A DNA stretch of 62,766 nucleotides, the filler included, from Klebsormidium nitens (taxonomy: Eukaryota > Plantae > Klebsormidiophyceae), in NCBI GenBank assembly GCA_000708835.1. It is 7 parts of 7 records of this genome, joined end to end, with 100 filler letters (N's around TTAATTAATTAA, not from the genome) between each part and the next. Parts side by side here need not be neighbours in the genome. Positions count along the whole stretch, not along the records: positions 43,139 to 59,815 come from DF237981.1; 6 more parts are not named here. The stretch is one strand, 5' to 3'. The notes under the pieces are model-generated. The model saw only the letters and a program-made list of their open reading frames with translations, was not told the origin of the DNA and did not search any database. The position numbers were made by a program, and so were the translations under genes. Shown here in pieces: positions 17,338 through 62,766 of the stretch (the stretch's first letter is position 1; every line of letters starts with the position of its first letter).

Positions 17338-17354
17338 AACACTTAGACAGGTTG

Positions 17355-19809: not shown

Positions 19810-19884
19810 GCAACACTCGCTTTTTCGTTGAGAAATAATTTCCACTGATAAGTCAAGCTTAAGTGAGCCGGCTGCTAGCTACCA

Positions 19885-42792: not shown

Positions 42793-43179
42793 GTTTCCTG
42801 GCGGTGGGAAGTCAAATTCTCGGGAAGGTGCATGTTACCTCAAAAACTTACTAACCTTACAAACCCACTACCTACACAAAGCACTGAGCGTGCGCACGCG
42901 CGACCGGCGCCGACCGGATGTAAACCCTGCGAACTCGACCCAATCATTGGTGGCAACACCCTTGTCAAGCGTAAACCCGCATTAACCAAGTGGCTGAAGT
43001 TGGTGACGTCACAACAAGGAAGCCGCCAAATCGGGAAANNNNNNNNNNNNNNNNNNNNNNNNNNNNNNNNNNNNNNNNNNNNTTAATTAATTAANNNNNN
43101 NNNNNNNNNNNNNNNNNNNNNNNNNNNNNNNNNNNNNNCTGGCGCTGCCAAGCGCTATGCGACGCACACATGCTCCCCC

Positions 43180-43422
43180 ATGCTATTTATCGACTCCTAC
43201 CCAGTGCACAAGAACACGACCACGACGGCTGCCGAGGGGATTAACAAGGGCCTGAAGCAGTCCGCGGCGAGTCTACAGCAGATCACCAGCATCCGGAGGT
43301 TCTTGATGAGGGTGGCCACCATCCTTGACACGCTCTTCGAGCGCAGCAAGCATGCGGTATTTATTGACAGGTCAGGGGGTAGCAATTGGCTCAGAGACTC
43401 GATCATAGATAGGCGCTCGTGA
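43180..43422 (+). CDS. 3' end of an unknown coding sequence emerging from a gap
   Basis: Open from the gap edge with coding-like composition; converges on the primase-helicase. Confidence 0.3.
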   Translation: MLFIDSYPVHKNTTTTAAEGINKGLKQSAASLQQITSIRRFLMRVATILDTLFERSKHAVFIDRSGGSNWLRDSIIDRRS

Positions 43423-43627
43423 GAGACGAGCCTGGAAGCTTGAAACAGCGATACGTAATACGGTGGCCTCAACTCCTTTATAGTATTAATGGCATGTGTT
43501 TGGCTACCACTTGAAAGCTGCTGTATTGCCGTATTGCCGTATTAAGCTTTGCGTTCGTGTATAGTCACGTGGGTGGGAGGGGGAGGTAGTACTAATACAG
43601 TAATATATATCTTAGTGTATTAGTGTA

Positions 43628-46416
43628 TTACAGGGGAGAGGCGACATTGGCGGGGGATTCGGGTGGCAATTCGGCCTCACTCACCACCCTCACCACGTGA
43701 CTCTTGTGGCAAGTGGTACACACCCGTGCGGAACCCTGGATCTTCGCGTCCCTTTCGATCTCGGCGGCCCTGATTTTCAAGTTGGTACTCATGAAGCTCA
43801 TCCATGGGCCAGCTGCATCTACGGTGTGGCCAAACGAGCGCTCCCATTGCCCATACCAATCGACTTCAGACCACATGTTCTCTTTCGTCAGCACTTTGCA
43901 TATCATAGGCTCGCTCGGAAACCACCAGCCTCGTGTTGCTAGTATGCCGTTGACCGACCTCGAACCGTCCCTCAAACCAAAGACGTCTCTAAGTGAGCCT
44001 ATCTTGTCGAGCTTTCTATCATCTTTGATCCGATGACTGTCCAGGAATGACTCGAAAGTCAACATGATGTCAGCAGATGCCACCCATGTCTCTCGATACG
44101 GGTGAAAGCATCCGCTCTCCAACAGACCTTGGATCATCTTCACGGATGTGGAGACTGAGTGGCCCTTGAGGCGCTCTCCCCAAGCGGTCTGCGGAATGTC
44201 CTGGGGATCCCACTCGGAGATGTCGATGGATGATAGGTATTGATAAAACACGTACGGAGTTTCCACATCGTTCAATTCGTGGAACAGAGCTTTGAAGTAT
44301 GCTTTGTTCCGAATCATCTTGTCTGAACTCTCCATCGCAAAGTAGCGTCTATCGTCGGCCTCCTTTTTTATGGGCCAATACTCGTTCGTCGTGAATGCAA
44401 TGTTCTGAAAGTCGTCCACCTGAATCGCGTCCACGCCCTTCCTATTCAGAACGCCCTGGGATTGCGTGATCATACTCTTCAGCCTGTTGTTCGACTTGTA
44501 TGCCCCACCCCAACTGTTCACTTCATCGAAGACGGTTAGCAACTTGTTTGCGGCCACTGCGTTGAATGACCCAATGACATTTTCGAGATCCTGGCAGTAT
44601 AGGTAGAGGTCGATGCCGAGGATCATGATCCCGAAAAAGTCGAAGAGCGCGCTCTTCCCACTGCCTTGCTTTGATCTTATCACCAGGGCCACCCCGGTTT
44701 TCTTGTGTGGCTTCTGAATCACATGCGCAAGCCAGCAGATCAGATATCTGTAAGACTGCTCACACCCATTTGCGAGGATGTTCCGGATGTGCCACAGGAG
44801 TCTAGGTATCTTTGCTTCGCATTCTCGCATCCCTTCCTCGGTAAGCTTCGATTTCAAGGGTTCGAACTTGAGGCCGTTGAACAGGTTGAAATGCTTGGGG
44901 TTACCTTCATTCAGACTGGGGTAGAATACGACTTTATCATACTGTCGCCTTGCCGACGAAGATCGCCAATAGGCTCCAGCGTTCTTGAATCGCCCTGGCA
45001 CCTTGGATAGACCGAGAGTCTCACAGCGCTCTGCAAATTCACGTCCACTTCGGAGGACCTTCTTGAATGGTTTCAGGCTGTTATCTGAATCGCGTTTGAA
45101 GAGTGTCTCAGTGTAAGTGATTCGGGAGGCGCCGGTCACGACCCCGAAATAGTGGTTCATGACTTTGACTACAATATCAAGCAAAGTTGCCACCTCCTGC
45201 TTGGCCGCTGCTTCAGAGTCTTTCTCGTTCGATGTACATATGTACTTTTGGCAGTCTTGCAGTACTCTCGAATTGTCCTCATCGATTTTTAAGGGCAGGC
45301 AGTCGGGCCAAAAATAGACTCCGAGCATCCGCTTGGCTTTCTTGATGCATTCGCCGCCTAGGCATCTGTAGAGGAATATCGCCCCATTGCTCAGGACGCT
45401 GAAATTGTTGCTCGTGTGGTTGCAACCATTCACACATGTCCTCACACCCACCGTTCTGAACTTCATCACATGCCAACCGGTTTTGGTCATAGGTCGCATA
45501 CCGACGAACCGACTCCTGTCCCCGGGAAGCTTCTTCTGCAACAAGGCCGATACCACCTGGACCGCTTCAGAAACGCCGTGGATGATGGTTGCCTCCGGAG
45601 GGATTGAAACAGGAATTGACGCGGTCTGTTGTGCGACTGCATGAGTGGGCTCGAGGGCAGCATTCAAAAATTTTGTGAGCCACTCGGGCATCGCACTCCG
45701 TGGGGAGCTCGCATCTCCGTTGAGCCAGCTGTACCCGTAAGTAGCCCCGTCCTCATCGTGATATGTAGTTGGGCTCACAAAAACCACGCATCCTCCCCCC
45801 GTCCGTCGATAGCCCAAGTCAGATCCAAATGTTTCAGCGATGTGAAGTTCTTTCGGTGCTGAAGCCCTAACGTCTTGCGGTTGCTGAAGTAAAGGTGCAA
45901 TCCTAACCCAGAGCCCGTGGACGCTTTCATAGTGTTGATATCTCCATGCTCTGCGATGAGCGCTGTCCACAGCTCGGTCCCATCTCGTTTCCCGGCCTTC
46001 GGATTGTCTTCAGATGCTTGCACCGTCTTGGCGTCTATGTCAAGGACAAACAAGTCGGAGATGCCGCACAGCAGGGCAATTGCATTCACATGCACTGAGG
46101 CGGATGCAATGATTTCGTCGATATGTTCTGTCCAGGCTTCGACCGAACCCATGAGATGCTCATAGCGATTCGGGAATTGTGGCTTTTTCTTCCCGTTGAC
46201 CATGTCAATCCGCAGAGGGATGCCGTAGAGCCCCTGTTGTGAGAGCTCTTTGATTGCCGCTGATATTCGCATTCTCTGGTAGATAGGGCTAACGTTCTGA
46301 TCCTCCGCAGGTCGTCTGCCAGCGATGACCGCCTCGATCGACTGAGCACCGTAGGGCCTGGCGTCTCGAACTCCGAGACCGGCGTTGGTGGGCAGCGAGC
46401 AAAGTTGAGATGCCAT
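43628..46416 (-). CDS. Bifunctional Prim-Pol / Zn-binding / SF3 helicase (about 930 aa; one frameshift near 45800)
   Basis: LFVLDID, TGSGLGLHLYF and IDGRG (shift in a G-run) GCVVFVSP; then CVNGCNHTSNN...YRCLGGEC, SKQGSGKS, LTVFDEV and DDRRYFAME. Confidence 0.9.
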
Positions 46417-46534
46417 GCGATCTTCCTTACCAGGTAACGAACATTTTATTTTTGAGAAAAACGCGCTCGTTCGGAGATTGTACTTTTTTTCTGAATGTAT
46501 TCCACGAGGCTTAATGACTCTTCAAGTATCCGGT

Positions 46535-46833
46535 ATCAACTCGTACAGCGACGATTTGCGCTCGTGCTTGTGTTCTGTTTGTAAATCAATGCGAGATTAT
46601 GGAGAAAGGCACCCCGATCGCCACACGAAGACCGTCAGAGACTACTATAGTCGCAATCGAGAGGATATACTCCTAACAAAAGCATTCAATCGCCACCAAT
46701 CAGGCATGCATGAAATCTCGGCCAGAAACGTTGGAGAAGCTTATCAATGCTGGATATCCGGTACGTAAAGGACAAACTGATCCTCAAATGCAAATCGGAG
46801 ATTCGGTCGCCCAGTACTTGGCAATTGAAGCAT
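46535..46833 (+). CDS. Small virus-like hypothetical protein (probable frameshift)
   Basis: CSVC...RDYYSRNREDILLTKA pattern, as in small basic proteins of large DNA viruses. It is the only plus-strand ORF called inside 43.6-59.2 kb. Confidence 0.35.
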
Positions 46834-46854
46834 GACTCACAGCTGCTCAGATTA

Positions 46855-47913
46855 CTACCAAGCTATTGGAGTCCCATCGGGCTTGTACTTTTTCTCGTAA
46901 TGGGTCTGCTGAACCGCCACCGAATGCAAACAAGATGACGCCTTTTCAGCCCGATCTCTTAGGGATGGTGCATCTTTGTACTCGTTTGAGATCAAGATCT
47001 TCCGCATCAGGCTCGAACCGACGTTTGCATCCATCCATATGGCCGCCATGAATTTCGAATAATAATTGCGGCCCATGGGGGTATCTGGCTTCTTCATGCA
47101 ACTCAACAGATACCTCCTGGGGAATACGACGAGACTGTCTACAACTACATTGTTCATGCGCTGCGGAAATGCATACATTTTCTCCGCCTGCGATCGGTCC
47201 GTCTTGAAGTATCTGAGGTGGAATGTGAACTGTCCTTCTGCCGTTTCCATGATGTGGTTGCCTTGCATCAGCTTTCGTATCGCTGATGATCGGTGGTCCT
47301 TCATGAAAATGATTGGGGCGTCTGAATAATCGTTCCGCAAGGTTGGTAGATAGGCGTACAAACATAGGATCAGGTGCCGAATGAGGTCGATACGATCCTC
47401 CATCGTAATGTCTGCAGGTTGTTTAGGCAGAATGAGTCTGTTCACACGGCGCTGTAGCTCCTCGCGCTTCTTTGTGATCTGTTCCAGTGTCTTCCAATTT
47501 GCTCCCTCATGCTCTGTCATTTGCTGCAGGGGGGGTTTAAGGGCTTCTCTTGCCTTTCTGATGTCCTCGTGCCTGTCAAAGTACACCTTCCACAGAGCCA
47601 TATCTCGTAGGTGATCCTTTGCAATTATCATGAGGGTGAAGATGTACCCATGCTGAGCTGGCAGTTTATCTGAATACACGTCCTTCAGAAAGTCAATCAC
47701 TTTGGCACAATCCGTCTTGACCCACCGGAGGTCCCTCAACTCCTCAGACCCTTCGAAGAAACTCGTGTGTAACCGCAGGGTCTGCGAAACGTACTGACGG
47801 AGAGTGTTTTCTTTCCGTAGATTGTTGTCGAATGCAGCTTTGACAATCTCATCCGGCGTCGGCTCAACCTCGATATGCTTGACATTATCCACCTTTTTCA
47901 TGATCGTAACCAA
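46855..47913 (-). CDS. Intact NCLDV/PLV-type tyrosine recombinase (about 350 aa)
   Basis: LCLYAYLPTLRNDY (Arg), YFKT (Lys), FPRRYLL, SSLMRKILIS, CLHS and QQTHY (Tyr) occur in the correct order. ATG at 47901. Confidence 0.8.
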   Translation of the reverse strand: MVTIMKKVDNVKHIEVEPTPDEIVKAAFDNNLRKENTLRQYVSQTLRLHTSFFEGSEELRDLRWVKTDCAKVIDFLKDVYSDKLPAQHGYIFTLMIIAKDHLRDMALWKVYFDRHEDIRKAREALKPPLQQMTEHEGANWKTLEQITKKREELQRRVNRLILPKQPADITMEDRIDLIRHLILCLYAYLPTLRNDYSDAPIIFMKDHRSSAIRKLMQGNHIMETAEGQFTFHLRYFKTDRSQAEKMYAFPQRMNNVVVDSLVVFPRRYLLSCMKKPDTPMGRNYYSKFMAAIWMDANVGSSLMRKILISNEYKDAPSLRDRAEKASSCLHSVAVQQTHYEKKYKPDGTPIAW

Positions 47914-48094
47914 CTATGTACTTAGCTACGAAAAAAGTGACCATGGCTCTGCCTCGCCTCGGCTACATAGCTGACTGAGGCATGCCAGAAAAATATCACA
48001 GGCCAGTCGAGACTGTGCTCATGAATGCAATAACCAAATGATCGTTTTCAGTACACAATGGGAATTCATTGGCAAAACGGCCAGAAATTCAGAA

Positions 48095-48116
48095 TCACCT
48101 AAGCGCGCTTAGGTGA
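48095..48116. promoter_or_regulatory. Perfect 22-bp palindrome upstream of the recombinase
   Basis: TCACCTAAGCGCGCTTAGGTGA; function unknown. Confidence 0.5.
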
Positions 48117-48457
48117 ATGGGCCCACATAGGTGACTGGCCCTTGTCAGAATTTTGGACTGCGGGTGGGAACAGTCCTTCAGCTAAGTGGTCAGGATCCAG
48201 ATGGGCCAACAACTTGGTTATTCCATTGATGAGCGGCCATAATCTTTGGATGTTGACCCATCCGAGCCATTGTGCGAGTCTTCGGTTATATACTCTGTTC
48301 CAAACTCGAGCTTCGAGTCAGACACCAAATCGTAATTGGAATACTTGTTGTACTTCGCCATCCAAAGCGATTCACTCTTCCATGTCAAAAGTCCCACATA
48401 GTTCTCGGTCAAATATCCTACGGCCTAAAGTGATCATAGTATTCAAAATTGTACAAC

Positions 48458-48960
48458 TGTACCAGGATGATGTAAGTTGTCTCTATAGAACATGAATGCA
48501 CCATCCTGGTACAAGCTCAGAATGGTTGAATTGTCCGGCTGGCGCCGGGGTTCACAGCTGTACCAGGATGATGTAAGTTCTTTCTTCAGACAATGTATGC
48601 ACCATCCTGGTACAGACTCTCAAAGTTCACCGTTGTACCAGGATGATGTAAGTTTGTTCTATAGAGAATTCATGCACCATCCTGGTACAAGCTCAGAATG
48701 GTTGAATTGTCCGGCTTGTGCCGGAGCTCACAGCTGTACCAGGATGATGTAAGTTAGGCTAGCCTCAAGTCATGCACCATCCTGGTACAAGCTCAGAATG
48801 CTTGAAGTGTCCGGCTCGCGCCGGGGTTCACAGCTGTACCAGGGTGATGTAAGTTAGGCTAGCCTCAGATCATGCACCATCCGGGTACGAACTCGAGTTT
48901 CAATGTTGTGTCAGGATGACATTAGTGCTATGGCGAGATTCGTGCACCACCCTAGTTCAT
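48458..48960 (+). repeat. Palindrome array A (5 full and 1 degenerate 55-56 bp units)
   Basis: Units at 48458, 48559, 48634, 48735 and 48835: TGTACCAGGATG-N31/32-CATCCTGGTACA. Confidence 0.95.
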
Positions 48961-49034
48961 ATCAGGATGATGCATGAATTTGGATGCACGGAGCTGCCAC
49001 CATCATGGTCAGAGCAAGCCAAGCGACCCGAGCT

Positions 49035-49532
49035 TTAGAGTTTGACGCCGCCTGTGCCTTGACCTAGACGTCGCAAGTGCATTCGAGTCAAGTCGTCGAC
49101 GTTGCGCCGAGTGCCAATAATCAGCACCGAGAAATCCCCATCCACCGAGACCTCGACCGAGACCTCCAACACGTCCTTTGAGATGATGCAGCGTCCGAAG
49201 CCTAGGACGTCGATTCCGCCCACCCATGCTTGCGCGTCTTCGTTGAGGTTCCAGAAGTAAGCAGGCAACTCGATCTGGCCCCTGCAATCGTGGGTGGTGA
49301 CCTTGAATCGGTGCAGGTTCTCACCTTGGGTCGGGGCTTCAACGAAGCAGTGTTTTACCCGAGTGATCACAAACGACCCTTCTTCAACGGGATCCTCAGC
49401 TTCCAAGTCGTCCTCAGACAGGTTCGAGTCTTCGAGGAGCGACTCTAGGTCCTTGTCCGTGTATGACTTTGGATCAAAACCCAAGGCGTATGTGCAAGGT
49501 TCACAAGCTCGGTGTTGTGTGATGTCAGCCAT
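49035..49532 (-). CDS. Protein resembling the C-terminal domain of viral fibre/tail-spike proteins (165 aa from ATG 49532)
   Basis: KHCFVEAPTQGENLHRF...IELPAYFWNLNED.Q.WV...FGR...DGDFSVLIIGTRR. Recalled similarity to environmental virus fibre C-termini; not verified. Confidence 0.45.
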   Translation of the reverse strand: MADITQHRACEPCTYALGFDPKSYTDKDLESLLEDSNLSEDDLEAEDPVEEGSFVITRVKHCFVEAPTQGENLHRFKVTTHDCRGQIELPAYFWNLNEDAQAWVGGIDVLGFGRCIISKDVLEVSVEVSVDGDFSVLIIGTRRNVDDLTRMHLRRLGQGTGGVKL

Positions 49533-49737
49533 AATCGTATGTCTATAACAATTTCCGAGATTAAAAAAGACCCATGAAATCCGCGCGATCATGCCAGACG
49601 GCTCGAGGAGCCCGGGCCCAAACTCCAAATGTGCTGTCGATTGCCAATGGGCTTTGGAATCAATGAGGTCTGCAGGAGTTCCCCGGCGGCAGCCGGAAAC
49701 TTAGAGCATGCTGAGGTACAAACTCGAATCCGACCGT

Positions 49738-50394
49738 TGTACCAGGATGGTGCATCAATACTCTGAAGAGAAAACTGACATCATCCTGGTACAGCTTTGA
49801 ACCCCACCGGACTCTTCAATCATTCTGAGCTTGTACCAGGATGGTGCAGGAATTGTCTAAAGAAAAATTTACATCATCCTGGTACAACTGTGCACCCCGG
49901 CGCGAGCGGGGAACTTACATCATCCTGGTACAGCTTCGAACCCCACCGGACTCTTCAATCATTCTGAGCTTGTACCAGGATGGTGCAGGAATTGTCTATA
50001 GAAGAAACTTACATCATCCTGGTACAGCTTCGAACCCCACCGGACTCTTCAATCATTCTGAGCTTGTACCAGGATGGTGCAGGAATTGTCTATAGAAGAA
50101 ACTTACATCATCCTGCTACAGCTGTGAACCCCGGCGCCAGCCGGACAATTCAACCATTCTGAGCTTGTACCAGGATGGTGCATGAATTCTCTATAGAACA
50201 AACTTACATCATCCTGGTACAACGGTTAAATTCGAGTCTGTACCAGGATGGTGCATGGATTTGGCTAGTCAGTATTGACATCATCCTGGTACAGCTGTGA
50301 ACCCCGGTACCAGCCGGAAACTTCAGTCATTCTAAGTTTGTACCAGGATGGTGCATGAATTGTCTATAGAGAATACTGACATCATCCTGGTACA
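49738..50394 (-). repeat. Palindrome array B (7 full and 1 half unit), inverted relative to A
   Basis: Units at 49738, 49832, 49971, 50065, 50166, 50239 and 50339; half unit near 49913-49932. Confidence 0.95.
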
Positions 50395-50480
50395 ACGGTC
50401 GCATTCATGTCACTATGGTCTGGAGTGTTCTTATCATCAAAAAGCATTGAAGCCTTTGTGCATGCCATCATAGCATAAGT

Positions 50481-50996
50481 CTACTGACACTTTAAAGGGT
50501 TGCTCATAACATCCAACATCGGGACCGCCGCACTACGGTCTCCATTGAAAATGTATTGTGGCCCACCGTCTGCGGTTGCATGCTGTAGAAGCTTAGTATG
50601 TTTGTCGAACCGAACTTGCGGGCGTGTGGATTTAGGCTTGAGCACATTCCCCCAGTCTAAAAGAAGATGATATGGATTACGGCATCTATGTGTTCTTACT
50701 CCGGCTTTCTCGAGCCCAAAGCGTACGACTTTCACCATATCGTGCATACTATGGGGCGATAATACTCCTTTTAACCCCGCAATTTCGTCTAGCTTAAGGG
50801 TCATGCGTGTACACCGTTCATTTTCGTATGCTCGTCTGATCCGCCCTATTGATTTATCAAGGCATTGATTGTAAAACTCTTCAATCTGATTGGACCTCTT
50901 GAGATGTGTATTAAGTATGCTTTGCATGGCCGCATGTACTACATTAGGCGTATGTAAAACGAGGCGGCGCCTGGTGGCACACAAAGGCACTTTCAA
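50481..50996 (-). CDS. Hypothetical protein resembling a conserved uncharacterised NCLDV family
   Basis: FYNQCLDKSIGRIRRA...VRFGLEKAGV...YHLLLDW resembles the Y..IL..C..RI...L...GF.V...L.I.W pattern; not verified. Confidence 0.45.
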   Translation of the reverse strand: MKVPLCATRRRLVLHTPNVVHAAMQSILNTHLKRSNQIEEFYNQCLDKSIGRIRRAYENERCTRMTLKLDEIAGLKGVLSPHSMHDMVKVVRFGLEKAGVRTHRCRNPYHLLLDWGNVLKPKSTRPQVRFDKHTKLLQHATADGGPQYIFNGDRSAAVPMLDVMSNPLKCQ

Positions 50997-51219
50997 GGTC
51001 TACACTACAAGGCTCGACAATCCATGTAAGCAACATGATCAGATGAATGTTTGGCACGCCATCGGATCATGAAAAATGAAGTGTCCAAGCACGACAATAA
51101 GGACTTCAAATTACTCATGCATTTCAACAGGGTCGAAGATGCTTCTTTGCACAAGCTTACATTGACTTATTATGTACACCGAGTCATTCCTATTTATCAA
51201 TCGTCTCTGAGTCTCATTT

Positions 51220-51483
51220 GAGCGTTAGCTAGAAGACAGTCAGTTCGAAGGTCACCCTTTTGGTTTCCTAAACCTGCAATCTCCTACTCGAAGCGCGCAA
51301 GGTACAAGAGCGTTAGCTAGAAGACAGTCAGTTCGAAGGTCACCCTTCAGGTTTCCTAAACCTGCAATCTCCTACTCGAAGCGCTCAAGGTACAAGAGCG
51401 TTAGCTAGAAGACAGTCAGTTCGAAGGTCGCCCTCTGGGTTTCCCAAACCTGCAATCTCCTACTCAAAGCGCTCATGGTACGA
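51220..51483. repeat. Tandem array, 3 x 88 bp
   Basis: Units at 51220, 51308 and 51396 start gagcgttagctagaagacagtcagttcgaagg. Confidence 0.92.
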
Positions 51484-51626
51484 TAGTTGGTGTGCTCGTG
51501 CTGCACGCTGCAAGTGGAGATTTCAACAATTTCAGAGGCGTATCAAGATGATGCAAGCTTTTTGTAAAGAAAATCGAATCCTGCCAGCGCCAGCCGTCGC
51601 GTCGGACACTTCAACCATTCTGAGCT

Positions 51627-51682
51627 TGTACCAGGATGGTGCATGAATGGTCTACAGAGAAAACCAACATCATCCTGGTACT
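51627..51682 (-). repeat. Single 56-bp palindrome unit C
   Basis: tgtaccaggatggtgc...acatcatcctggtact, preceded by the array spacer. Confidence 0.9.
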
Positions 51683-51838
51683 GCGGGTAACTTCGTGCAT
51701 GTACCTTGCCTGACCCAGAATAGAGTTTACAAGCTGCATATGCCACTACCATATACCAGGACGGGATCGATAAAAAGCGCCAAATGACTTACCAGGGTCG
51801 CGGGACCGCCCCCTCGCGATGGGGCACGTCATGAATTA

Positions 51839-54800
51839 CTAAGGTGGAATCGTGATCAGGCAGACCTCCTCCACTGGCACATGAGGCTCGGGGGAACCAG
51901 GCTCGGGGAGATCCGCGAGGAGCGGGAAGCCGGAAGGCCTCTCCAGCAAGGGGTCGAAGATGCTGGCATCCAAAGAATCTAGGTACTCTCGAGCGACCGG
52001 GCTTAGCTTCTTGATGAATTGCCACCAGTCGGTCACCTGTCTGAATTGAAGCTTTGCCAGCATCGCCATCTTGTGCACCTTCTCGGCATCCAAGCGGAGT
52101 CGGTAGTCCGCTTGCCCTGCACCCGACTTGTTGGTCCCACGTCTCGGCCGAGATACCTCGATCAGTGGCTCAAACTCGAGCCCGGTTGCTCCCATCATCA
52201 CATTCAAAGCGCCTTTCAGCTCTCCGGGCGACCACTCGGTGCAGCCGACTTTAAACTTCAGACGCACCCCCCCGGACATTTCCGAGGGCGTCCTCTCCGC
52301 CATCGATGCTCCACGTTGAGACCGACTTCTATACCCCTTGAACAAGGCGGTCTCCAAAAGGGCTTTCTTGAGCCCGCCCGAGATGAAGGAGCGGGTCGGA
52401 GTCAAGTCGAAGGGGTGGGCGAGACCAAGGGCCTTGAGCACTTCTCGCACGAACTCCGCCATTGGCTTGTCGTTCATTGTGACGCCCATCCCTTCTCCAT
52501 TCAGGTTCTCGTCTGGAATGAGGACCTTGAGGAGCATGGGAAGCTCCTCCATGAACGGCGGCTTGATGGCGTCTTGCACTGTGCCCCAGAAGAAGGGCTC
52601 GAGCGTCGCAAGGCCGTAGAAGTTGCATAGCTCGTACCTCAATGCCTCGACATTCTCATTGCCTACATCCCGCTTCACATCCCGGAGCTGCTTCACCTCA
52701 GCGTACTCTTTGGCGCTCAATGCCTTTGCCCCGAAAATTCTTCTTGCCTCCTCGCCAAATGCATCAGGTCTCTGCTTCTTTCCCACCGGCGTGGGTACAA
52801 ACGGGGCCACCTCCAGGATGTGCCCCGCCTTGTCAATCTGAAGCTTGAACTCGTGAAGGAAGCGTTCGTTTGAGTTCCGTCGCTCTGCTTCGGTGTGGGT
52901 TAGGGTCCGGAAAAGAGGCCCGTCCTCCTTGATGTGAACCACCCTGCTTGGTAAGAGCGGATTGTTCTCGTCCCGCACAGAGACTCGTTCATCTCGGAAC
53001 GACCGCGCCTGTTCCACGTTGCAACAACGGAGGTATGCGGATGTCTCTTCGACTGTAATCCGTCGAGGCGAAACGAACTCGCCGGGCGCCTTCTTTGCCT
53101 TCTGCAAGAATGAACGATAGGATTTCAGCGGTTCCATTGTGATCAAGTCTTTCAAATGTGCTTCGTTATGCAAAATCTAGAGCAGGTCTTTGGCCAGTCA
53201 GAACCAACATCATCGCTTCGCTCATGGGCTTTGCCTTCGCTGGTACAGCTGTGAACCCCAGCTAGCGCCGGACCATCTGTCGAGGATGCAACTGAGCTTA
53301 GAAACAAGTTAACCTACCGTGACAAGCTCAGCCTCCACCCCTTCAACTTCGGTTGTTTTAGTAAGCACCGTGACCGCCATGGTCTGCAGTGATCAATGAA
53401 AGACGTCAGATTTAAGAGGTTATTCACCTCAAGCAAGTCATTAACAGACATGAAATATGGAGCGGACAAAGATTCTACATAATGACGATAATGCGAAGTT
53501 CTCCAGATCAAAGCTGTATCATTTGTTATACTCACCTGGGTGTTGCTGATATTCTGGGGGATTTCGAGCTCTTCCACGGGAACCACCACTCTGTCATCCA
53601 CCATCACCGATATGCCAGACTGGATGCAGCAGTTGACGACTGGGTTGCTCGTGTGTCGGACTCGCAGAGATCCTTGCCAAATGCCTCGAGCGGTGGCACT
53701 TTGCATGCACATATATATGTACTTGCAGTCAAACCACCGCACGGCAAAATTGACAGCTGCCTCCACTGTGGGGCTGTACATCAACAACCGCACCTTCCAG
53801 TTCGTCTCGACGTCATCGAGGAGAGCCATGTTCTCACTGCTGCTGAGGGCTGTATGGACCACTATGTCCGCCTCTGACAAGATCCCTTTCTCCAGGATGC
53901 GTGCCTGAAGGCGATATAGCGCCTTGGTGGACATGAAGATCCCGACCACATTGAGCCCGGACTGAAGGTCGGCAATGATCATATCGTGCCAGTCCGACTC
54001 CGATCGATGGATTCGGAATGTGAGCTGCTCCTGTATGGAATAGAGCACTGATTCACAAGCTTGGCAATGACTGCCCACTTTTTGCTTCTGATCAAAACTC
54101 CAGTCTCCTATACGGCATGTTTCTTGCCTTTCTTCAAATTGCGGGTGAAGCGCACGAGATGCCTTGACGTTGCATGATCTGTTTTCTAATGCCCTTGGAC
54201 TCTACGGGCATCGTGTTGCAAGAGACTAAATGTTAAGCATTTCACATGGCCAATTTATTTCAAGAAGCTTCAATCAGACTGAGTCAAGGTCATCTGCAAC
54301 CAACCTTAGCCAAGCGCTCGTTGATGATAAGCTGTCCTCGGACGTCCGCCATCTGGAAGAAGTCATGCTCCCGCTGGGCATATCCGTCGTCCATAGCCAG
54401 AACCCGTGATGCATTCTGAACGATCTCCAACAGAAGATTAGCAGTACACATCCCCCGTTTCAGCGTCGCTGCGGAAAGGTGGGCCAGTATGCTGGCAGTC
54501 TCATCGAGAACCACCACGTCAAAGGGTGGAACCTCGCCAACTCCCTGAGGGCGGAGCCCAAGCAAGCTGTCCACCTGGATGATGAGGTCAGGAAATGCCT
54601 CTCTGTTTTGAAGCGCGGTGAGCTTCTCGCTGCTCCCTGGATCCGCAAAATACTCATCGCTGTAATCAGCCTTGAGGTCCAGGTAGTTCTCAAAGCCTGG
54701 GAATCTCTTCTTCAGATCTTTGGCCTGAGCCACTCGATATGTGATGAAGACGATGGTCAGTGGCCGTCGGCTGCTCGCACACTCCAACTCGGATAAAATG

Positions 54801-57800
54801 GTTGTACAGGTCTCAGTCTTGCCAGTACCGACGCCCGAGCGGAAGGCCAGTAGAGGGAACTCCGGAGGGCCGAGCTCTCCCTCCGCATCCGTCTGTCCGA
54901 TCCACCTGCAAAAGGTTTCAAGATGTCAAGCACAGCCTTTTCAAGTGTCCATCATCTGATCTGGAGGTAGGCCCACAAGCTCAAAACGCTCAAAGGTTCC
55001 CGGCTGGCGTTGGGGTTCACATGTATATCAACACACTCTTCTGTCCTAGATTTTGGACTATCATAATACAGCTCGATCAAGCCCCCGCACGTGTCAGAAT
55101 GATGTCAACTCTTCTTTTGGGATCAACTCTGATTGCAGAACGACAAACCTATCGATGACGCTGTTAAGGCGTGCCGAATCCGTAGACACTGCTCGTCCGG
55201 CGGCCACCTCGGCAAGCAGAGCGGGGGAGCTGGCTGCCCGGTCACGTCCCAAGTACTCCATGTCAACCACGATCGCAGCAGACCGGAAAGTCAAGCTGTC
55301 CTCGTACAAGTCCCCCAAGTATAACGCCTTGGAACGGCAGGACATCCGGGGCGTCGCCCTGAAGGTCGGTGTTGGTGCTGAAGCACAGTGCGTAAATCTT
55401 GCCATCAGAGGCGAGATGGCACGTCAGGTTCTGACGGCCGTCATGCACGCGGCCTGTGTAGCAGGGCTCGGACCGGTCGGTGTAGTTGAACCGATATGGG
55501 CCTTCCGGATAGGCCGTGGGATGGAGCCTTTCCCGCAACAAGGTCAGCATCCGCTCCTTCACAAACGCACCGTTCTGTGGAGTGCGGTCGCCGAAAGCTG
55601 TTAGCTGCTTTGGATCCGATGGACCCTTGTACAACTTGGCTAGGAGCGTGAATGGCACCTTTATTATTTCACAATCCTGCACAAAAAAGAAAAGTCCTCG
55701 GTTGGCAAAGCTCGACCAAGGTACAATATACGAAACGAAAGACTATTGNNNNNNNNNNNNNNNNNNNNCTGTCTGCCCGATCCACCTGCAAAAGGTTTCA
55801 AGATGTCAAGCACAGCCTTTTCAAGTGTCCATCATCTGATCTAGAGGTAGGCCCACAAGCTCAAAACGCTCGAAGGTTCCCGGCTGGCGTTGGGGTTCAC
55901 ATGTATATCAACACACTCTTCTGTCCTAGATTTTGGACTATCATAATACAGCTCGATCAAGCCCCCGCACGTGTCAGAATGATGTCAACTCTTCTTTGGG
56001 GATCAACTCTGATTGCAGAAGGACAAACCTATCGATGACGCTGTTAAGGCGTGCCGAATCTGTAGACACTGCTCGCCCGGCGGCCACCTCGGCAAGCAGA
56101 GCGGGGGAGCTGGCTGCCCGGTCACGTCCCAAGTACTCCATGTCAACCACGATCGCAGCAGACCGGAAAGTCAAGCTGTCCTCGTACAAGTCCCCCAAGT
56201 ATAACGCCTTGGAACGGCAGGGCTCCGGGGCGTCGCCCTGAAGGTCGGTGTTGGTGCTGAAGCACAGTGCATAAATCTTGCCGTCAGAGGCAAGATGGCA
56301 TGTCAGGGTTTTCTGGCGGCCATCATGCACGCGGTCTGTGTAGCAGGGCTCGGACCGGTCGGTGTAGTTGAACCGATATGGGCCTTCCGGATAGGCCGTG
56401 GGATGGAGCCTTTCCCGCAACAAGGTCAGCATGCGCTCCTTCACAAACGCACCGTTCTGTGGAGTGCGGTCGCCGAAAGCTGTTAGCTGCTTTGGATCCG
56501 ATGGACCCTTGTACAACTTGGCTGGGAGCGTGAATGGCACCTTTATTATTTCACAATCCTGCACAAAAAGAAAAGTCCTCGGTTGGCAAAGCTCGACCAA
56601 GGTACAATATACGAGGGCCACAAAAAAAAAAAAAAAACGAAAGACTATTGTACCAGGATGATGTTAATACTATCTATAAAGAATTCATGCATCATCTTTG
56701 TACAAGCTCAGACTGATAGAAGCGTTCAGCTAGCGCCGGAGTTCACAGCTGTACCAAGATGATGTAAGTTCTTTCTATAGACAATTGATGCACCATCCTG
56801 GTACAACCTCAGAATGATTGAAGTGTCCGGCTGGCGCCGGGGTTCACAGGTGTACCAGGATGATGTAAGTATTCTCTATAGACAAGTCATGCACCAGCCT
56901 GGTACAACAGTGGTCGTAGGACTCCGTACCAGCGTGGGCGAAGCCTACGAGCGAAGCGATGGTGTACGTTTTCTCTATAGTGATGTCAAAATTGACATCA
57001 CTCCGTCACAGCTTCACAAAGCCTCCTGAGGTCAAGAGAAGCATCCTCGAGCACTCACCTCTGGCGGCGGCAATCACGTCACCAATGCGTCCTTCCACGT
57101 GTGGGCCGGATCGAGAAACTGGAGGACGCTTCCTGGCTTCTCCACTTTGGCACTCCCCGGGGTGCGCCACTCCTGGTCCCTGGTGTACACGTCCATGTCC
57201 AGAAGGTCGGCTACCTTGGGCTCCCAGAGCATCAGCCGCTTCTTCAAGCGGATAGCAAAGTCCTTGGCCCCGTCCGACAAGTTTGACTTAAAAACTAGCT
57301 GCTGGGGCCCCGTCGAGTTGATCGTGAGGTGCATACTGAACTTTGCCTGGCTCCCACTCTGCATCCAGACAAAGTTGCCTTGGCCTGCAAGTCTGATGCC
57401 GTAGTCTGTTTCAAACACGACCGTCGTCCACTGCTCGATCCTCTGCATGACCTCCTGGTGAGTTATTCTAACTGGTCCTTCACCAGCACCATCCGTCGCC
57501 GGGACACGAGGCCTGAAAGGCAGCCCCTCTTTGCCGTCTAGGTCCAGGTAAGGTTTGCAGGGTTGCCCATCCTGGATGACCTCAAACACGGAACCATGTT
57601 GCTGCGAGAACAACAAGTGCTGTTCTGCAGTGCGCCAGTCAGGATAGGAGGCGTAGCTGCGCCACGAAATACGGAGGCCGGTCCTGATATCATGCCGCCC
57701 AGACGACATGTGGAGGACGACTCGTGCCTTATGGTTGAGCAGGCATTCTGGTGCATAAAGTATTTGGGGCCAGGCTGACTTTCGCGGCTTTTGTTGCCGT

Positions 57801-59187
57801 GCTTGTAGAAGAGGTTGGCGCCATACTCCCACTTCCGTACGACAGTGTACCCTCCTTGCTTGTACACCTCGTTTCCACTCAGGAGCTCTGATGTTTGCCG
57901 CGATGATTGGAATCCCTCTGGCGCGTCACTGGACCCTTCCAAAGCTGGCACACCCAGGTCCCTGTATTGAGTCAAGCTAGGTCGAGTCAGTAGGATGCTG
58001 CAAAACCCTGGAGCATGGGATGGACATGCTCAAACACAGTGGCCGGAGTTTCGGCGGCCCGCCGGGATCATTCGGCGGCCCGCCGGAATCATTCGGCGAC
58101 CCGCCGGACATGATGTACCAGGATGGTGTAGAACACTTCTATAAAGAAAATCTGCATCATCTTGGTACAGCGGTCAGATGGTGCATACATCTGGCCAGGA
58201 AACTGATACCATGCTTGTGCAGTGGCTGAGCTTTGCCTCTGTACCAAGATGGTGCGTGAAATCTCTATAGAGAAAGCTGACATCATCCTGGTACAGCTGT
58301 GAACCCCGGCACTGAGCCGGACACTTCAACCATTCTGAGCTTGTACCTTGTCTTGAAAGAGTACGTGGGCTTGAGAACCAACCTTGTAGAGACTGACCCG
58401 CCTTGTGAGAACTCTTGCAATCCATCTCGACCTCCAGCCACTGCCACCTCCAGTGAAGATGTCACCTCCAATAAAGACTCGATCGCGCTCATTGAAGACT
58501 CAATCGCTGTAGCTGCTTTCTCCAGCTCCGCAGCCTTCTCTAGCTCCCGCCGCTTTGTATATTCCTCAAAGTGTGGTGTATAAGCTTGCTGCCTGCGAAC
58601 GGCCTGCATCAAGGAGTGGTGGTCCAGTACATGGAACTTCATGAACCAATCCCAGTGACGTATGGAACTGAAAAATGGAGCTTGTCATCTTGCACTTGAA
58701 GTTGAGCTTGGCGCCGGAAATCTCATGTATTTTGACTCCGTACGAAGATGGTGCAAACATCTGGCCAGTTAAAATTGACATCATCGTGGTACATCCGAGC
58801 TAAACACAATTCTGCAGCTGAGCTGCTGAGCTTTCCATTGAGTCTAAGCAGAAATCAATAGAGGCGGTCAGAGGGGTGAAACTCACGTCGGTCACCGCTG
58901 CAGGCTCAGCCTTACTTATGAGAATGCCAAAAGGGCCTTTCTCGGATGGCTCCATGATTGGACCCGATGCCACACGCCACCCACAACCACACCACCCTTT
59001 TTACGATGACAGAAAGCCTCCACACTTCTGCATTGATATCATCGACCAAAATTTGTTCAAGATGGCAACTGAGCGCCACGCTCAATAGCTCAAGGAGCCC
59101 GGCCTGTGACTCTTCCCTCCGCCAAGTTGTATCAAATTGAAATGCCAACAGTGTGCCCAGGGTCGGCTTGTGGTAGTGGTCGAATAT
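51839..59187 (-). CDS. Multi-exon AEP primase / Zn-ribbon / UL9-like SF2 helicase (about 1,600 aa; two 1-nt frameshifts and one internal stop)
   Basis: Exons: 59187-58916, 58667-58347, 57997-57059, 56558-55990, 54905-54305, 54030-53318, 53176-51839. Motifs: FEVI..QPCKPYLDLD, KFSMHL, DVYTR.QEWR, C..RVH...C, RSGVGTGKT, FITYR, IIQVDSL, VVLDE, YSPTVEA and QGSLRVR. Confidence 0.8.
54889..56648. repeat. 880-bp tandem duplication around a 20-N gap
   Basis: 54889-55748 matches about 55769-56648 with scattered differences. Only the distal copy has the primase exon intact. Confidence 0.85.
56649..56906 (+). repeat. Palindrome array D (3 units), inside intron 57058-56559
   Basis: Units at 56649, 56750 and 56851. 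Confidence 0.95.
58050..58108. repeat. About 3 x 21-bp GC-rich tandem repeat
   Basis: ttcggcggcccgccgg(g/a)atca at 58050, 58071 and 58092. Confidence 0.85.
58114..58347 (-). repeat. Palindrome array E (2 full units, 1 degenerate unit and a half arm), inside intron 58346-57998
   Basis: Units at 58114 and 58240, with a half arm at 58342-58347. A further degenerate unit lies at about 58739-58793. Confidence 0.9.
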
Positions 59188-60264
59188 CTAGCATGCTCAC
59201 TGAGAAGTATGACCTACTAAGGTCTCTACTGATACTAATTATCTGCTATGTCAGTTGGTGTGGGCTTGCTTGAGCTTGGATGGGGCGTTTATTGGCCGCT
59301 TTATCTCCTGCATGTGATTTTCGCTTCATTTTGCAGTGTAACATGCAATATTTGCAAGGGAGATCGGTCCATGTGTGGAGCCCGTGAGACTGCTAGCGTC
59401 GAAAACGTTACATTTAAATGAATATTCAAACATGTCGGTGCAAGCAGGGGGTCTGTATTGAGAAACAGGTCCTTGCCCACTACGTTTTTTGTCTCAGCAT
59501 GCCAAACTTGGCAAAAATCACGGGCAATGTGCGCAGTCCATGACATGCAAAGCATCGATTCTCAATCTGGGTCCCTTTCGGTCGGAGCGTCGGGATTGGG
59601 GGCCAAGGCTGCAGTTTTCTGCCACGTGTTCGCAAGCGGAGCACCCGGACCGTGACTGACGGCCGCTCCAACGGGCTCGATTACGGTACGACCGTCCTTA
59701 CTTACGATCGGTGGGGGCAGCTGATGCTCGTCACCCGGCAGCGTGCCCGAAAATGCCGGGGTCCGACCGTACGGAGCTGCGGGCACGTGGTACGGCGCGC
59801 CCGGGGCGAGTTTGGNNNNNNNNNNNNNNNNNNNNNNNNNNNNNNNNNNNNNNNNNNNNTTAATTAATTAANNNNNNNNNNNNNNNNNNNNNNNNNNNNN
59901 NNNNNNNNNNNNNNNAACCGCCGTTTTGACCATGTAGCTAGAGTGGTCGGTTTAGGCTGGCTAGTGGCTCTAAAGGTAGCTTTTGTAAAGCCCTTCCACA
60001 TGCAGAAACCAGAATGCGAAAATATTGAGCGACGCTCTTGTTACTGGCGAAGACGGGCCCCAGGACGTCAGACGCGCGCGCGCGAATCGATTTAGGGAAG
60101 TTCGACCTTAAAATGACGCTCTGAATAAAGAACAATGGCAGTTCTCTTCTCTGAAGCCACATGAAGTTCCTCTCCGGAGTTCGTCAAGCGAAGGGAATCT
60201 TGGCGACCACACGTAAACTTCGAAACAATTGACAAAATCCCATGACGACGAACTTTGCGCGCAC

Positions 60265-62157
60265 CTTGACAAGCTCCTGATTGCGCTGCCGCTGCGCCTC
60301 GTGCTCCGCAGCCATGCGCTTGCGCGCGAGCTCGTCCTCGTAGCGCAGCATCTGCGCCTTGTTCTGCGCCGCTTGCGCGTTCAACTTGCGCTGCTCCTCA
60401 AACGCGACGCGCTGCCGCTCAATGTCCGCCTGCGCCTGCTGCGCACGGTACCCTTCTTGCTTCGTCTTCTCCTCCGCTTGCCGCGTCTCCTCCTGCTTCC
60501 GTGTGATGTCAATGACCTGGCAAAAAGCAGGATTCGGATAAGGTTAAGAAAGGTGAAAGTCAAGTAAAGGTCTTCCTGGATACGTTTGAGACCCTGGTTG
60601 GTTCGTCGTCCCTTGGCTTGCCGCGCCTTCTCGTGCTTGAGCATAAAATATCTGACCTGCCGTTACGTGACAAAGGGAAGGCAATGCAAAGCCCAGTGCT
60701 TTGTGATTGTTGAGTTCTCGTTTGAATGCTCAGCATTGCTTCCCAACCAGTGTTCTCCCACTCGTGCATCTCATAGAGGGGCAAAAAGGGGGATCAGGAT
60801 ATTGATGAGATCCTTTTTCGGGCTTGTTATGACCACCGCAACCTCCCTCCACTAAGTTGCAGCAAGCTACTGTTTGACTCTGCTCCAGTCCAAACTATCT
60901 TTGATTGCAGATCTCCCCTCTGCCGAGTCAAGGTTGTCAGCCTTAAGTATGAGAAGAGCGTAGCGACAATATCTAACAAGAACCAGACCAATGAAGTGCT
61001 TTTACAAGGGTCTTAAACGGTTGTACTTTCCTTCTTTATTAATCCTTTTCGATGCTCAGATTCAAGCGCCCTCCTAATTGCATAGGTATCCCTCCACACA
61101 AATGAAGCTGTTGGCCTCTCCGTTTCCAGCCTGCTTGCATGCAGGCGCCAGGAGCAAACTGTCCCACTCCTTGTGTAAAACCCTTTACTCAGCAGCTCAG
61201 TAAAGAGGGTCTAAGCAAGCAACCAAACAAGGAACCCATGCTCCCAAGCATCGTTCCAACCAGTCATGTCAAGACCACGACCTTTCGAATCTGAAATACT
61301 TTGTACAAGCAGAGACACGACGATCAAATCTTGTTACATAGGAAGACTAATGAAGCGCCCTACTACCTGCATTGAGTGCCTGGTTACGGAACGAGATGGA
61401 TAGTATATGATGGCACTGACATGCTTCTCGGGTGTGGTGTCAACTTGAATACAAGAGAAACAACACGTTTGCTCACTATGATGCGGAGGCTTATAGGCAC
61501 ATCAAGCTTATTACCAGAAGGCGCAGCCTCGAAAGTGCTAGATCTAACTCAATTCGTTGCCCCCAAGCGCAGTCAAGCCTCTCTACTGAAGGATACATTC
61601 AAAAAGGGCAAGATCTACGACTTACCACCACTAAGCACAATTTTGCATGGATTGATGCTTACCGAACAGGCAGATTGCTGGAACTCACAGCTTGGAAAGC
61701 CAAGAAATCCTCATCAGATTTTGAATCAATCCTACTGGCGGACCAGATAACAAGGTTTCTGCATGAAACTTTGTAGCCATCAAGATTCAAAAGCGACCGC
61801 TACGATATCACAACGCTGCCATTAAAGACAATCAGAACAGCAGGACCGATACTTCGCCACCACTCCTTCATCACATCCCCCCTCTTGATTGCTCCTCGCC
61901 CCACTCACCTGTTTCGCATACTTTGACGAGTTAATCTCCCGCAGCACCTTGGCCCCCCTCTCAAGTGCCTCTGGATCAAAACCGGCTGCCGACGTCCTGG
62001 GAAAGGGGTTTGACGGCTTCTCCGCCTCAGGCGCTTCCTTTCCCTGCTCCGCGTAAGCGACTCGGTAGCTCAGTCCAACGCCGGCACTACCCCCAACCAC
62101 CGCCGCCATGGCTGCGGTCGAAAACTTCTTAAGCCCGAATTGGAGCGCCATTTTCAA
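60265..62157 (-). CDS. ATAD3: ATPase family AAA domain-containing protein 3, first two exons only
   Basis: Exon 62157-61909 (GFDPEALERGAKVLREINSSKYAKQ|gtgagt) and exon 60516-60265 (VIDITRKQEETRQAE...AQMLRYEDELARKRM...QRNQELVK|gtgcgc). Confidence 0.9.
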
Positions 62158-62766
62158 AGGCGCTTGTCAACCAGCAATCCTGCAGGCCCTGACCACCTTC
62201 GAGATCAACAAAAGGAGCTTGGCGGCACCCTTATCGTGCCACTACGCCAGGAAGAGGACCATTACCAGGTTTTGTGAAGGAGCTCCTCATCTGATGGCTG
62301 GGTGGTTCTGATTGCTGGATTGCAGTGGCCTGCCAGCCTCCCCTCACCTACGATCGCGCTGTTCCCAAGTGGCGTTGTGCCGCAGGAATTCACCTCATGA
62401 ACAGATTTGCGATGCTCAGCCGCTGTGCTCATCAGAGGTGAGATGGAAAGAAGAGCTTCCTCGGAAACAAGATCTAGTGTTAGTGACGGCTGGTACCAGG
62501 TACGTTACCCTTGGTTGCCGTTTGTCTATATGGATGTATCTTTTAAGAATTGAGCCGCGTCAGAATGTCGTTCGCCGCAACTACGGGCAGCTGCCGGCAT
62601 CTACCGTCGGCATATAATCCAGTGCGTTGAAGTACGTACCGCTTTGACACCAGACGGTCCTAGCCAATGGGGAAGACCATAACTAGAGAGACGCAAGAGG
62701 CGCAATGGCGCGAGTTTGACAGCACAGCAACCAGTCTGAGGTGCAGCGACTGCGATAGGAGGAACG

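Follow-up and report, generated by a model that had tools for sequence, protein, structure and literature searches.

A virus-like element in the genome of the alga Klebsormidium nitens carries a dispersed family of 56-bp repeats, with 19 full units plus remnants spanning positions 48453-58799 of the window, the 62,766-nucleotide stretch of DNA that we analysed. By analogy with known systems, the element's own primase/UL9-type helicase may have used the units as a redundant set of replication origins, of the baculovirus-hr kind and with a layout like that of the herpes oriS. We put the chance of this reading a little below even.

Anatomy and conservation of the repeat unit

A family of about 18 full units had been described by the sequence-only reading, and it is real. 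A mismatch-tolerant search listed 20 arm pairs, from which a decayed 53-bp pair at 48907 was dropped to leave 19 full units, 14 of 56 bp and five of 55 bp. The exact pattern TGTACCAGGATG-N28-36-CATCCTGGTACA has 10 matches in the window and none in 100 shuffles, and a half-site weight matrix scores above 8 at 42 places, all within 48458-58793, against a shuffle mean of 0.9. The claim that the unit is absent elsewhere in the window is true, but it is weak evidence for confinement because the block is one of several scaffolds that have been joined. Linkers of the form N44-TTAATTAATTAA-N44 occur at 2151, 14599, 20999, 25294, 43039 and 59816, and we infer that the window is a concatenation of separate scaffolds, a point that the first reading had overlooked. 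The scaffold carrying all the features occupies 43139-59815, 16,677 bp between two linkers, and the ends of the element were not found in it.

Each unit comprises two 16-bp arms with fixed mismatches, variable AT-rich linkers and an 8-bp central palindrome, and the arm-to-arm length is constant at 55-56 bp in all 19. TCTATAGA sits exactly on the axis in nine of the 14 56-mers, in agreement with what had been said of many units. The 24-bp AT-rich centre has a GC content of 31%, compared with 51.5% for the whole block. The dyad symmetry originally proposed holds for the inverted arms and the central palindrome, but positions 13 and 16 are mismatched between the two arms in 18 of the 19 units, and the units are therefore directional, not symmetric. 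Arrays are found in both orientations. A 45-bp spacer usually follows the unit, giving a monomer of ~100 bp. Among the 13 inter-unit gaps of less than 120 bp, seven are of 45 bp and two of 17-19 bp, matching the two spacer lengths (about 45 or 20 bp) already noted, and two are of 38 bp; the other two, of 70 and 84 bp between neighbouring units, contain broken units.

The unit begins with TGT and ends with ACA, its outer arms are perfect 12-bp inverted repeats and it has no coding capacity. Such ends would suit a selfish MITE- or minisatellite-like repeat with terminal inverted repeats of 12-16 bp, amplified in tandem in the non-coding DNA of the element and of no benefit to it, an explanation that we consider possible though somewhat doubtful. 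The same three bases open and close the long spacer and might be what is left of an old target duplication; they flank the unit on both sides in only three of the 19, where long spacers adjoin. Against a MITE-like origin, no target duplication was found at single units or array ends, and a MITE would presumably have no need of a constant length and a conserved central palindrome.

Conservation within the unit is uneven. In the six complete monomers the variable columns number 4 of 32 in the arms, 10 of 16 in the linkers, 1 of 8 in the core and 17 of 45 in the spacer; the difference between arms and linkers has P = 0.0006, for six monomers that are related copies and not independent. Pairwise identity among the 14 56-mers is 95% in the outer arms, 61-62% in the linkers and 88% in the core. 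All 16 linker columns, eight to either side of the core, vary across the 14 units and are the least conserved part. The earlier reading had looked to compensatory changes in the arms. None was found in 16 pairs, a weak test since eight of the 16 never vary. The position-13 mismatch, retained in 18 of the 19 units, is one that arm-to-arm copy correction should erase. With arms and core conserved, linkers drifting and no compensatory change, the unit looks more like a pair of protein-binding boxes flanking an AT-rich centre than like a hairpin. Conserved arms would also suit a transposase.

A structured RNA was rejected, since Rfam gave nothing even at E values as high as 1 and the pairing is without covariation. 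Inversion of the centre is unsupported, no unit being nearer to another in reverse than forward apart from 56649 and 48458 (a tie). A micro-exon reading (CAG/G...G/GT) was dropped, the candidate being 43 nt and present in both orientations, with the sole spliced contig skipping the entire array.

The element and its replication genes

The element is multi-copy, integrated and virus-like, and the present copy is decayed. It encodes an intronless tyrosine recombinase of PLV/giant-virus type (46855-47901, minus strand), in which the catalytic residues R189, K233, R300, H326 and Y335 are present; in an alignment of 102 sequences K233 and R300 are invariant and the other three occur in at least 90%. 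Its look-alikes are Preplasmiviricota clusters (score 0.98). The structural model is weak (pLDDT 57). Foldseek places Cre first at E 0.03 and the protelomerase TelA lower at E 0.74, which leaves Cre-like and protelomerase-like forms unseparated. VIA-align paired only the N-terminal domain, with domains of Ndc10, Xer and integrases (Z 6-7.8). A Prim-Pol plus SF3 (D5-type) helicase gene (43628-46416, minus strand) is also intronless, has a frame change near 45790 and is matched by P0025 at 90-95%; five scaffold sizes are common to the recombinase and helicase records. The contig recorded for protein P0019 has the block's length of 16,677 bp, and at 99% the protein corresponds to two of the block's ORFs. 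A 165-aa ORF (49035-49532, minus strand) between arrays 1 and 2 has no family match, and a ~170-aa ORF (50481-50999, minus strand) is skipped in another copy (joint 50394->51795).

The pairing of a tyrosine recombinase with a primase-helicase replicase resembles Polinton-like viruses, for which sections 11 and 13 of 10.64898/2026.10.13.758929 describe recombinases that go with an AEP, second replicases and small arrays of repeats. Unlike those viruses, no match to a capsid, penton or packaging ATPase was found among the ORFs of the 16.7-kb block, a fragment with three small ORFs lacking assignment, and one replicase contains introns. Nor was a baculovirus-like gene found among the ORFs of this fragment.

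That replicase is a primase plus Cys/His finger plus UL9-type SF2 helicase gene (51839-57961, minus strand), whose 5′ end was not found. The 'UL9' and primase pieces had been taken as separate; they are in fact one intron-containing gene, broken in the present copy by a stop at 57074 and a frame change near 57741. In tblastn six relatives (1054-1945 aa) are collinear with its exons across the DNA gaps, indicating a single fused gene. The relatives P0032-P0037 and P0195 show 42-60% identity. The helicase domain matches Pfam Herpes_ori_bp (PF02399, E 8.6e-11), as it does in five of the six relatives, and the UL9-like helicase and recombinase first reported beside the repeats are thus both confirmed. 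The primase part has AEP-like motifs by eye and no profile match. The helicase part is also like cyanobacterial CyRepA1, since relative P0035 matches that plasmid-replication model at E 5.5e-22, with a score of 78 that is below the cut-off of 200; P0035 gave no tblastn match to phage and plasmid records. The match to solved UL9 covers just 70 helicase residues (E 0.05). The C-terminal model has a low pLDDT of 37, and there is no profile match past the helicase domain. According to an excerpt of 10.1101/2024.02.29.582850, mimivirus R8, ASFV pF1055L and the mriyavirus AEP-SF2 protein have a primase N-terminal to a UL9-related helicase. The algal protein, with its putative AEP part, appears to have the same order, likened by description rather than alignment, but its gene has GT-AG introns and the family lies within one algal genome.

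The introns, all on the minus strand, have GT..AG ends and preserve the reading frame. Intron a (56559-57058, 500 nt) is spliced out in a related copy, as seen in one RNA-guessed contig (X11 record 16, joint 56549->57058), which ceases matching at 56028, that is, at the second copy (55786-56028) of intron b (54906-55148, 243 nt). Intron c (54031-54304) is of 274 nt, and intron d (53177-53535) is of 359 nt, with its acceptor placed from the frame. No RNA match is listed for 46400-55700, which is uninformative on expression. A duplication of ~880 bp (54891-56648; 837 of 882 columns identical) extends across a 20-N gap where an array would begin, and a joint 55740->48458 is on record. The duplication is likely to be two element copies joined by assembly.

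Placement of the repeats and their variation between copies

Five clusters had been counted; the repeats fall rather into four arrays of five, seven, three and two full units, two single units (51627 and 58739) and remnants. Array 1 (48453-49009, plus strand) has the recombinase gene on one side and the 165-aa ORF on the other, with full units at 48458, 48559, 48634, 48735 and 48835, two remnants and decay rightwards. Array 2 (49681-50399, minus strand) is intergenic and opposite in orientation to array 1, with seven full units (49738-50394) and one half unit. The single unit 51627-51682, with a spacer and a decayed neighbour (51514-51688, minus strand), is just past the 3′ end of the primase/UL9 gene. 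Arrays of opposite orientation bracket the 165-aa ORF and a primase exon.

Location of the repeats within spliceosomal introns of the helicase gene had been overlooked. Repeat DNA occurs in three of the four mapped introns (a, b and d), and in gene gaps. Intron a contains array 3 (56644-57000, plus strand; full units 56649, 56750 and 56851, plus a remnant). Intron b has a decayed spacer piece in its first copy (54975-55019, plus strand; 19 of 23 matches, shuffle maximum 17; nhmmer E 0.42) and in its duplicated copy (55855-55899, plus strand; by sequence profile and intron mapping), and intron d contains a decayed unit (53185-53255, minus strand; nhmmer E 0.001). A profile search found no remnant in intron c. 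Array 4 (58080-58347, minus strand; full units 58114 and 58240, a remnant and a spacer) lies upstream of the splice acceptor 57962 and is likely to be intronic. The sequence search also gave a single decayed unit at 58739-58793 (58700-58799, minus strand). Repeat DNA makes up ~2.3 kb of the 4.6 kb of non-coding DNA, and its coding overlap is 65 bases, in one doubtful ORF only. Units confined to sites where insertions are tolerated would be equally expected of a tolerated parasite, and this stands against the origin reading.

The unit travels with the element in other copies and other runs, while clusters have been gained or lost between copies, with joints that skip or shorten arrays and intervening letters that are often not known. 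Array 1 begins at the same position in X5 and is missing from other copies (joints 48345->49014 and 48412->49092); array 2 is bypassed in an X5 contig (joint 49614->50481). Since neither is present in every copy, no one array can be essential. Such presence and absence would suit a selfish repeat, but a diverged copy (X1 and organism B, joint 56563->56774) has kept units in the corresponding intron. A further RNA-guessed contig (X11 record 19; 1399 nt, depth 112) has about two units between flanks unlike the window, including a 21-nt piece absent from it; this cluster favours the MITE-like explanation and counts against the origin reading. Summed depth in X1 is 2178 for the unit, whereas single near-exact contigs have depths of 15-23 and the genes 19-135. 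Summed depth is not copy number; it suggests ~10^2 units per genome to an order of magnitude, compatible with ~20 per copy in several copies. This number is low for a MITE, and the unit-to-gene depth ratio, of order 10-60 in X1, X5 and X10, also speaks against one. The exact unit pattern is absent from viral, metagenome and prokaryote collections, and queries with the recombinase, primase/UL9 or PrimPol-SF3 found no related locus and no homologous locus with a diverged repeat.

The units might instead be recombination or resolution sites of the adjoining, catalytically complete tyrosine recombinase, serving excision or inversion in an integron- or shufflon-like manner, or telomere resolution. 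We regard this as improbable. The bracketing arrays are consistent with it, as is an identical 56-mer present in both orientations 1.5 kb apart (48634 and 50166). The joint 50394->51795 deletes the ORF between two same-orientation units, but no unit marks its end. In its outer arms and central palindrome, 56 bp in all, the unit resembles the telomere site of phage N15. In the sites of tyrosine recombinases the binding arms adjoin a core of 6-8 bp, whereas here the bases beside the core are the least conserved; five of the 14 56-mers have an imperfect core, and the 55-mers have lost it. The recombinase-site version of the first proposal is thus a poor fit. Moreover, the helicase exons are collinear with their relatives despite surrounding arrays of both orientations, and there are copies with the recombinase but without array 1.

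Replication origins and related systems

In the origin reading, the helicase would dock onto the inverted pair of 16-bp boxes and the 24-bp centre would come apart. The recombinase would supply an excised form of the element, on which the fused primase would begin synthesis. Slippage would alter array length, and recombination would shift monomers among non-coding sites in either orientation. The three-tier conservation, fixed arm distance, AT-rich centre, UL9-type host gene and position kept in diverged copies argue for this, as do the retained position-13 mismatch, the near-absence of repeats from coding sequence and the hr-like variation in array number. For origins or protein-binding sites as first suggested, element linkage and box-like conservation stand in support, while the skipped and foreign-flanked clusters do not. 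Some 20 origins in 10 kb would also be far denser than needed.

In HSV-1 oriS, by the part of PMC13261067 consulted, an AT-rich spacer of 18 bp separates two UL9 boxes. The algal unit likewise has two inverted boxes and an AT-rich centre, with a UL9-type SF2 helicase encoded alongside. It differs in having ~20 copies against three origins and a 24-bp centre at 31% GC against an 18-bp AT run, and the helicase is fused to a primase, its C-terminal DNA-binding domain being only putative. Baculovirus hrs are described in a portion of PMC4758234 as tandem imperfect-palindrome monomers at several non-coding loci, with singletons and a copy number that varies between genotypes. The algal repeats are similarly built on an imperfect palindrome and set in tandem at scattered non-coding sites, with singletons and an array number varying between copies. 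Unlike hrs of 28-30 bp they are 56-bp tripartite dyads at far greater density, and the algal element that carries them, in part within spliceosomal introns, is integrated; the likeness is analogy, not membership. Pithovirus M1/M2 repeats, in an extract of PMC10664404, form palindromic non-coding clusters that alternate with a second unit and are gained or lost between genomes. The algal clusters too alternate with a spacer unit and come and go, as a MITE-like repeat would, but with arms of 16 rather than ~50 bp, a non-palindromic spacer and no clear target duplication.

The same portion of PMC4758234 has hrs doubling as enhancers, and the arrays could be enhancers or chromatin anchors for host or element transcription factors rather than origins, which we think very unlikely. 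An intronic position would be suitable, and a separate 99-bp array at 16906-17337 has a GATGACGTCA core to which the inner arm GATGATGTCA/GATGATGTAA is similar. We take this core to be a bZIP-like motif. The 99-bp array adjoins a related recombinase/helicase element. Enhancers would leave the fixed arm distance and central palindrome unexplained, and the orientation relative to gene starts is inconsistent.

Among the papers listed by our searches, none describes such an element (a recombinase and two replicases, one with spliceosomal introns) in this alga, although paper supplements might list it. Giant viruses and elements related to them commonly encode primase/UL9-type helicases, and we found no literature naming the target DNA of one in an algal element; the repeat supplies a concrete 16-bp candidate box. 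If the repeats are mere passengers, they would be a small hr- or pithovirus-like family of modest interest. On the same analogies, it is conceivable, though on balance unlikely, that streptophyte algae host a family of nuclear elements that have introns, lack a capsid and replicate themselves, and in which oriS-like dyads arrayed within the introns of the primase/UL9 initiator are what that initiator recognises. If true, this would be a herpes-style origin system outside the herpesviruses, with a defined 16-bp box.

Repeat units and their anatomy

The exact arm-N-arm pattern occurs 10 times in the window and in none of 100 shuffles. With mismatches tolerated there are 20 arm pairs, from which 19 full units were retained (14 of 56 bp and five of 55 bp) and one decayed 53-bp pair was discarded. 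All 42 half-site matches lie within 48458-58793 (shuffle mean 0.9). A profile search located remnants at 48900-49009, 49911-49938, 51514-51575, 53185-53255 and 56958-57000, as well as fainter fragments of the spacer at 54975-55019 and 55855-55899; outside the repeat region of the window it gave just five matches, all with E ≥ 2.7. The family described in this interval by the sequence-only reading is thus borne out. That reading also found the unit nowhere else in the window. There is indeed no half-site match outside the interval, but this does not test confinement, because the window consists of joined scaffolds. It is divided by six N44-TTAATTAATTAA-N44 linkers, and the repeat-bearing piece, the block, spans 43139-59815 (16,677 bp).

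When oriented alike, the units comprise a 16-bp arm, an 8-bp linker, an 8-bp core, an 8-bp linker and a 16-bp arm. Arm positions 13 and 16 are mismatched between the arms in 18 of 19 units, and the unit is therefore directional. It is followed by a non-palindromic spacer of 45 bp (or 38, or 17-19 bp) in constant orientation, making a monomer of ~100 bp. Arrays 1 and 3 (48453-49009 and 56644-57000) are oriented alike, and all others, including arrays 2 and 4 (49681-50399 and 58080-58347), are opposite. An 88-bp tandem repeat at 51220-51481 (three copies, 91-97%) has a AAGGTACA motif in common with the unit end, and a 21-bp GC-rich tandem repeat (2.8 copies, 58050-58108) adjoins array 4.

Pairwise identity over the 14 56-mers is 95% in the outer arms, 61-62% in the linkers and 88% in the core, and is 85% for seven 45-bp spacers. 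Comparison of six complete monomers shows variation in 4/32 columns of the arms, 10/16 of the linkers, 1/8 of the core and 17/45 of the spacer; as the monomers are related copies, P values for these contrasts overstate the significance. It is unlikely that the units are sites for the recombinase encoded in the block, a reading that fits poorly because the bases adjoining the core are the least conserved of the unit.

The unit centre has a GC content of 31%, and hairpin folding of the units gives z of -3.0 to -5.7. Compensatory arm changes, which the sequence-only reading had suggested seeking, did not appear, with double-sided change in none of 16 pairs and a covariation score lower than that of shuffles. 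Since sequence and distance are kept while pairing is not restored, the units fit candidate double-stranded binding boxes. Pair 8, a CAG/CTG site, accounts for six of the 16 listed arm differences. In Klebsormidium nitens, silent transposons are reported to carry CHG and CHH methylation (PMC5890265), and these differences would fit deamination decay. One 56-mer is identical between arrays 1 and 2, in inverted relative orientation, and units differ by 7.1 within arrays versus 9.0 between them, which points to exchange between arrays.

Genes of the block and placement of the repeats

All block genes lie on the minus strand. The Prim-Pol and SF3 helicase gene (43628-46416, minus) contains a frame change. 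The recombinase (46855-47901, minus) has R189, K233, R300, H326 and Y335 conserved across its family of 2,902 proteins. It has no Pfam match itself; 15 of 102 family members match Phage_integrase. Its look-alikes in the protein atlas are viral, most frequently Preplasmiviricota, and it is multi-copy (six clusters, the largest of 15 members). The public protein record P0019, which its source assigns to Klebsormidium nitens, is a 99% match to two block ORFs. Its gene model (47784-49532) fuses a 165-aa ORF (49035-49532) to the recombinase across array 1, probably a misprediction because the recombinase is a 345-349-aa protein in other records. No block gene matched capsid or ATPase genes. A short plus-strand ORF (43139-43422) has a DDE transposase-like motif by eye and no Pfam match.

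Six relatives (1054-1945 aa) align collinearly to pieces running from 57961 to 51839, the DNA being interrupted at points where the relatives run on unbroken, and these pieces therefore form a single primase/UL9-type helicase gene, the helicase assigned by Pfam PF02399 and the primase by motifs seen by eye. At four of these interruptions the ends are GT..AG and the reading frame is preserved. A contig (record 16) from sequencing run X11, guessed to be RNA, joins 56549 to 57058, and its match ends at the next donor, 56028; this is a single contig of a related copy (depth 7.6, ~88-90% alike) and may come from an intron-less DNA copy. In the block's own copy the gene is disrupted, at 57074 and near 57741.

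Array 3 lies within intron a (56559-57058), remnants lie within introns b (54906-55148, second copy 55786-56028) and d (53177-53535), array 4 lies upstream of the splice acceptor at 57962, and the remaining clusters are intergenic. Repeat DNA makes up ~2.3 kb of 4.6 kb of non-coding sequence, overlapping ORFs by 65 bases of one doubtful ORF. There is none within the intronless genes 43628-46416 and 46855-47901.

Other copies and other scaffolds

Contigs of four sequencing runs were aligned on 43140-55740 and of four on 55769-59815. Among the best-supported matches listed, near-exact X1 contigs have depths of 15-23 (three at 33-40), bins over genes have 19-135, and depth reaches 2178 at the end of the unit at 56807; the unit has 596 versus 19-83 for genes in X5, and 27 versus ~3 in X10. 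By depth the unit number is of the order of 10^2, summed depth being no copy number. These could come from several element copies with at least 20 units each. In X6, the differences over 43140-55740 are dominated by C>T, at 278 places, and G>A, at 255 places, far above the other three runs.

Also among the matches listed are copies without array 1 (joints 48345->49014 and 48412->49092), without array 2 (49614->50481) and without the ORF beyond array 2 (50394->51795), and copies whose intron-a array is shortened (56563->56774, seen both in X1 and in another source, organism B; 56627->56789; 56870->57052). In X11 record 19, a contig of 1399 nt at depth 112, about two units are enclosed by flanks unlike the block, which counts against confinement of the unit; the same flank occurs in X1. 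Neither this flank nor a second foreign one from X10 was found in the window, and both may derive from elsewhere in the element or from the host. A selfish repeat, comparable to pithovirus M1/M2 repeats as partly described in PMC10664404, is a serious though less probable reading of the units than replication origins.

The scaffold at 14699-20998 has a layout of the same kind but different sequence: a D5-type helicase (15037-16513), recombinase-like ORFs (18918-19809 and 19879-20868, the latter of the same family as the block recombinase) and a 99-bp × 4.4 array (16906-17337) with a palindromic GATGACGTCATC core. Elsewhere are a SET-domain ORF (9012-9749), a MASE1 membrane-sensor ORF (12348-12884), copia-type gag and reverse-transcriptase fragments (22505-24950) and ORFs at 465-2020 resembling DIRS-type reverse transcriptase/RNase H by eye, with no Pfam match at E 0.01. 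Host ATAD3 exons (60184-62166, Pfam ATAD3_N) lie on the next scaffold, and because this is a separate joined scaffold the gene is not an established neighbor of the block.

Comparison with viral replicons

In HSV-1 oriS, UL9 binds two boxes flanking an 18-bp AT-rich spacer (PMC13261067), and the unit likewise has an AT-rich centre between two inverted boxes set a constant distance apart. Its dispersal and changing copy number resemble those of baculovirus hrs (PMC4758234). Primase-UL9 fusions occur in mimivirus R8, ASFV pF1055L and mriyaviruses (10.1101/2024.02.29.582850), and the helicase part also resembles CyRepA1, a cyanobacterial plasmid replication protein (PMC10079941). Small DNA viruses pair a tyrosine recombinase with an AEP replicase, have small repeat arrays and sometimes acquire a second replicase (10.64898/2026.10.13.758929). 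Klebsormidium is reported to contain marker genes of giant viruses (PMC5294986; PMC11244446). The literature searched, main texts only, held no account of this element or repeat.

The origins proposed by the sequence-only reading are our best reading, held tentatively at somewhat short of even chances: the units would be redundant replication origins, at which the UL9-type helicase would bind the two inverted boxes, the AT-rich centre would melt and priming would follow, with excision of the element. A role as enhancers is the least likely of the readings. The repeat family is real, structured and tied to an intron-containing viral-type replicon, and hr/oriS-like working is our best guess, by likeness rather than as a member of any named family.
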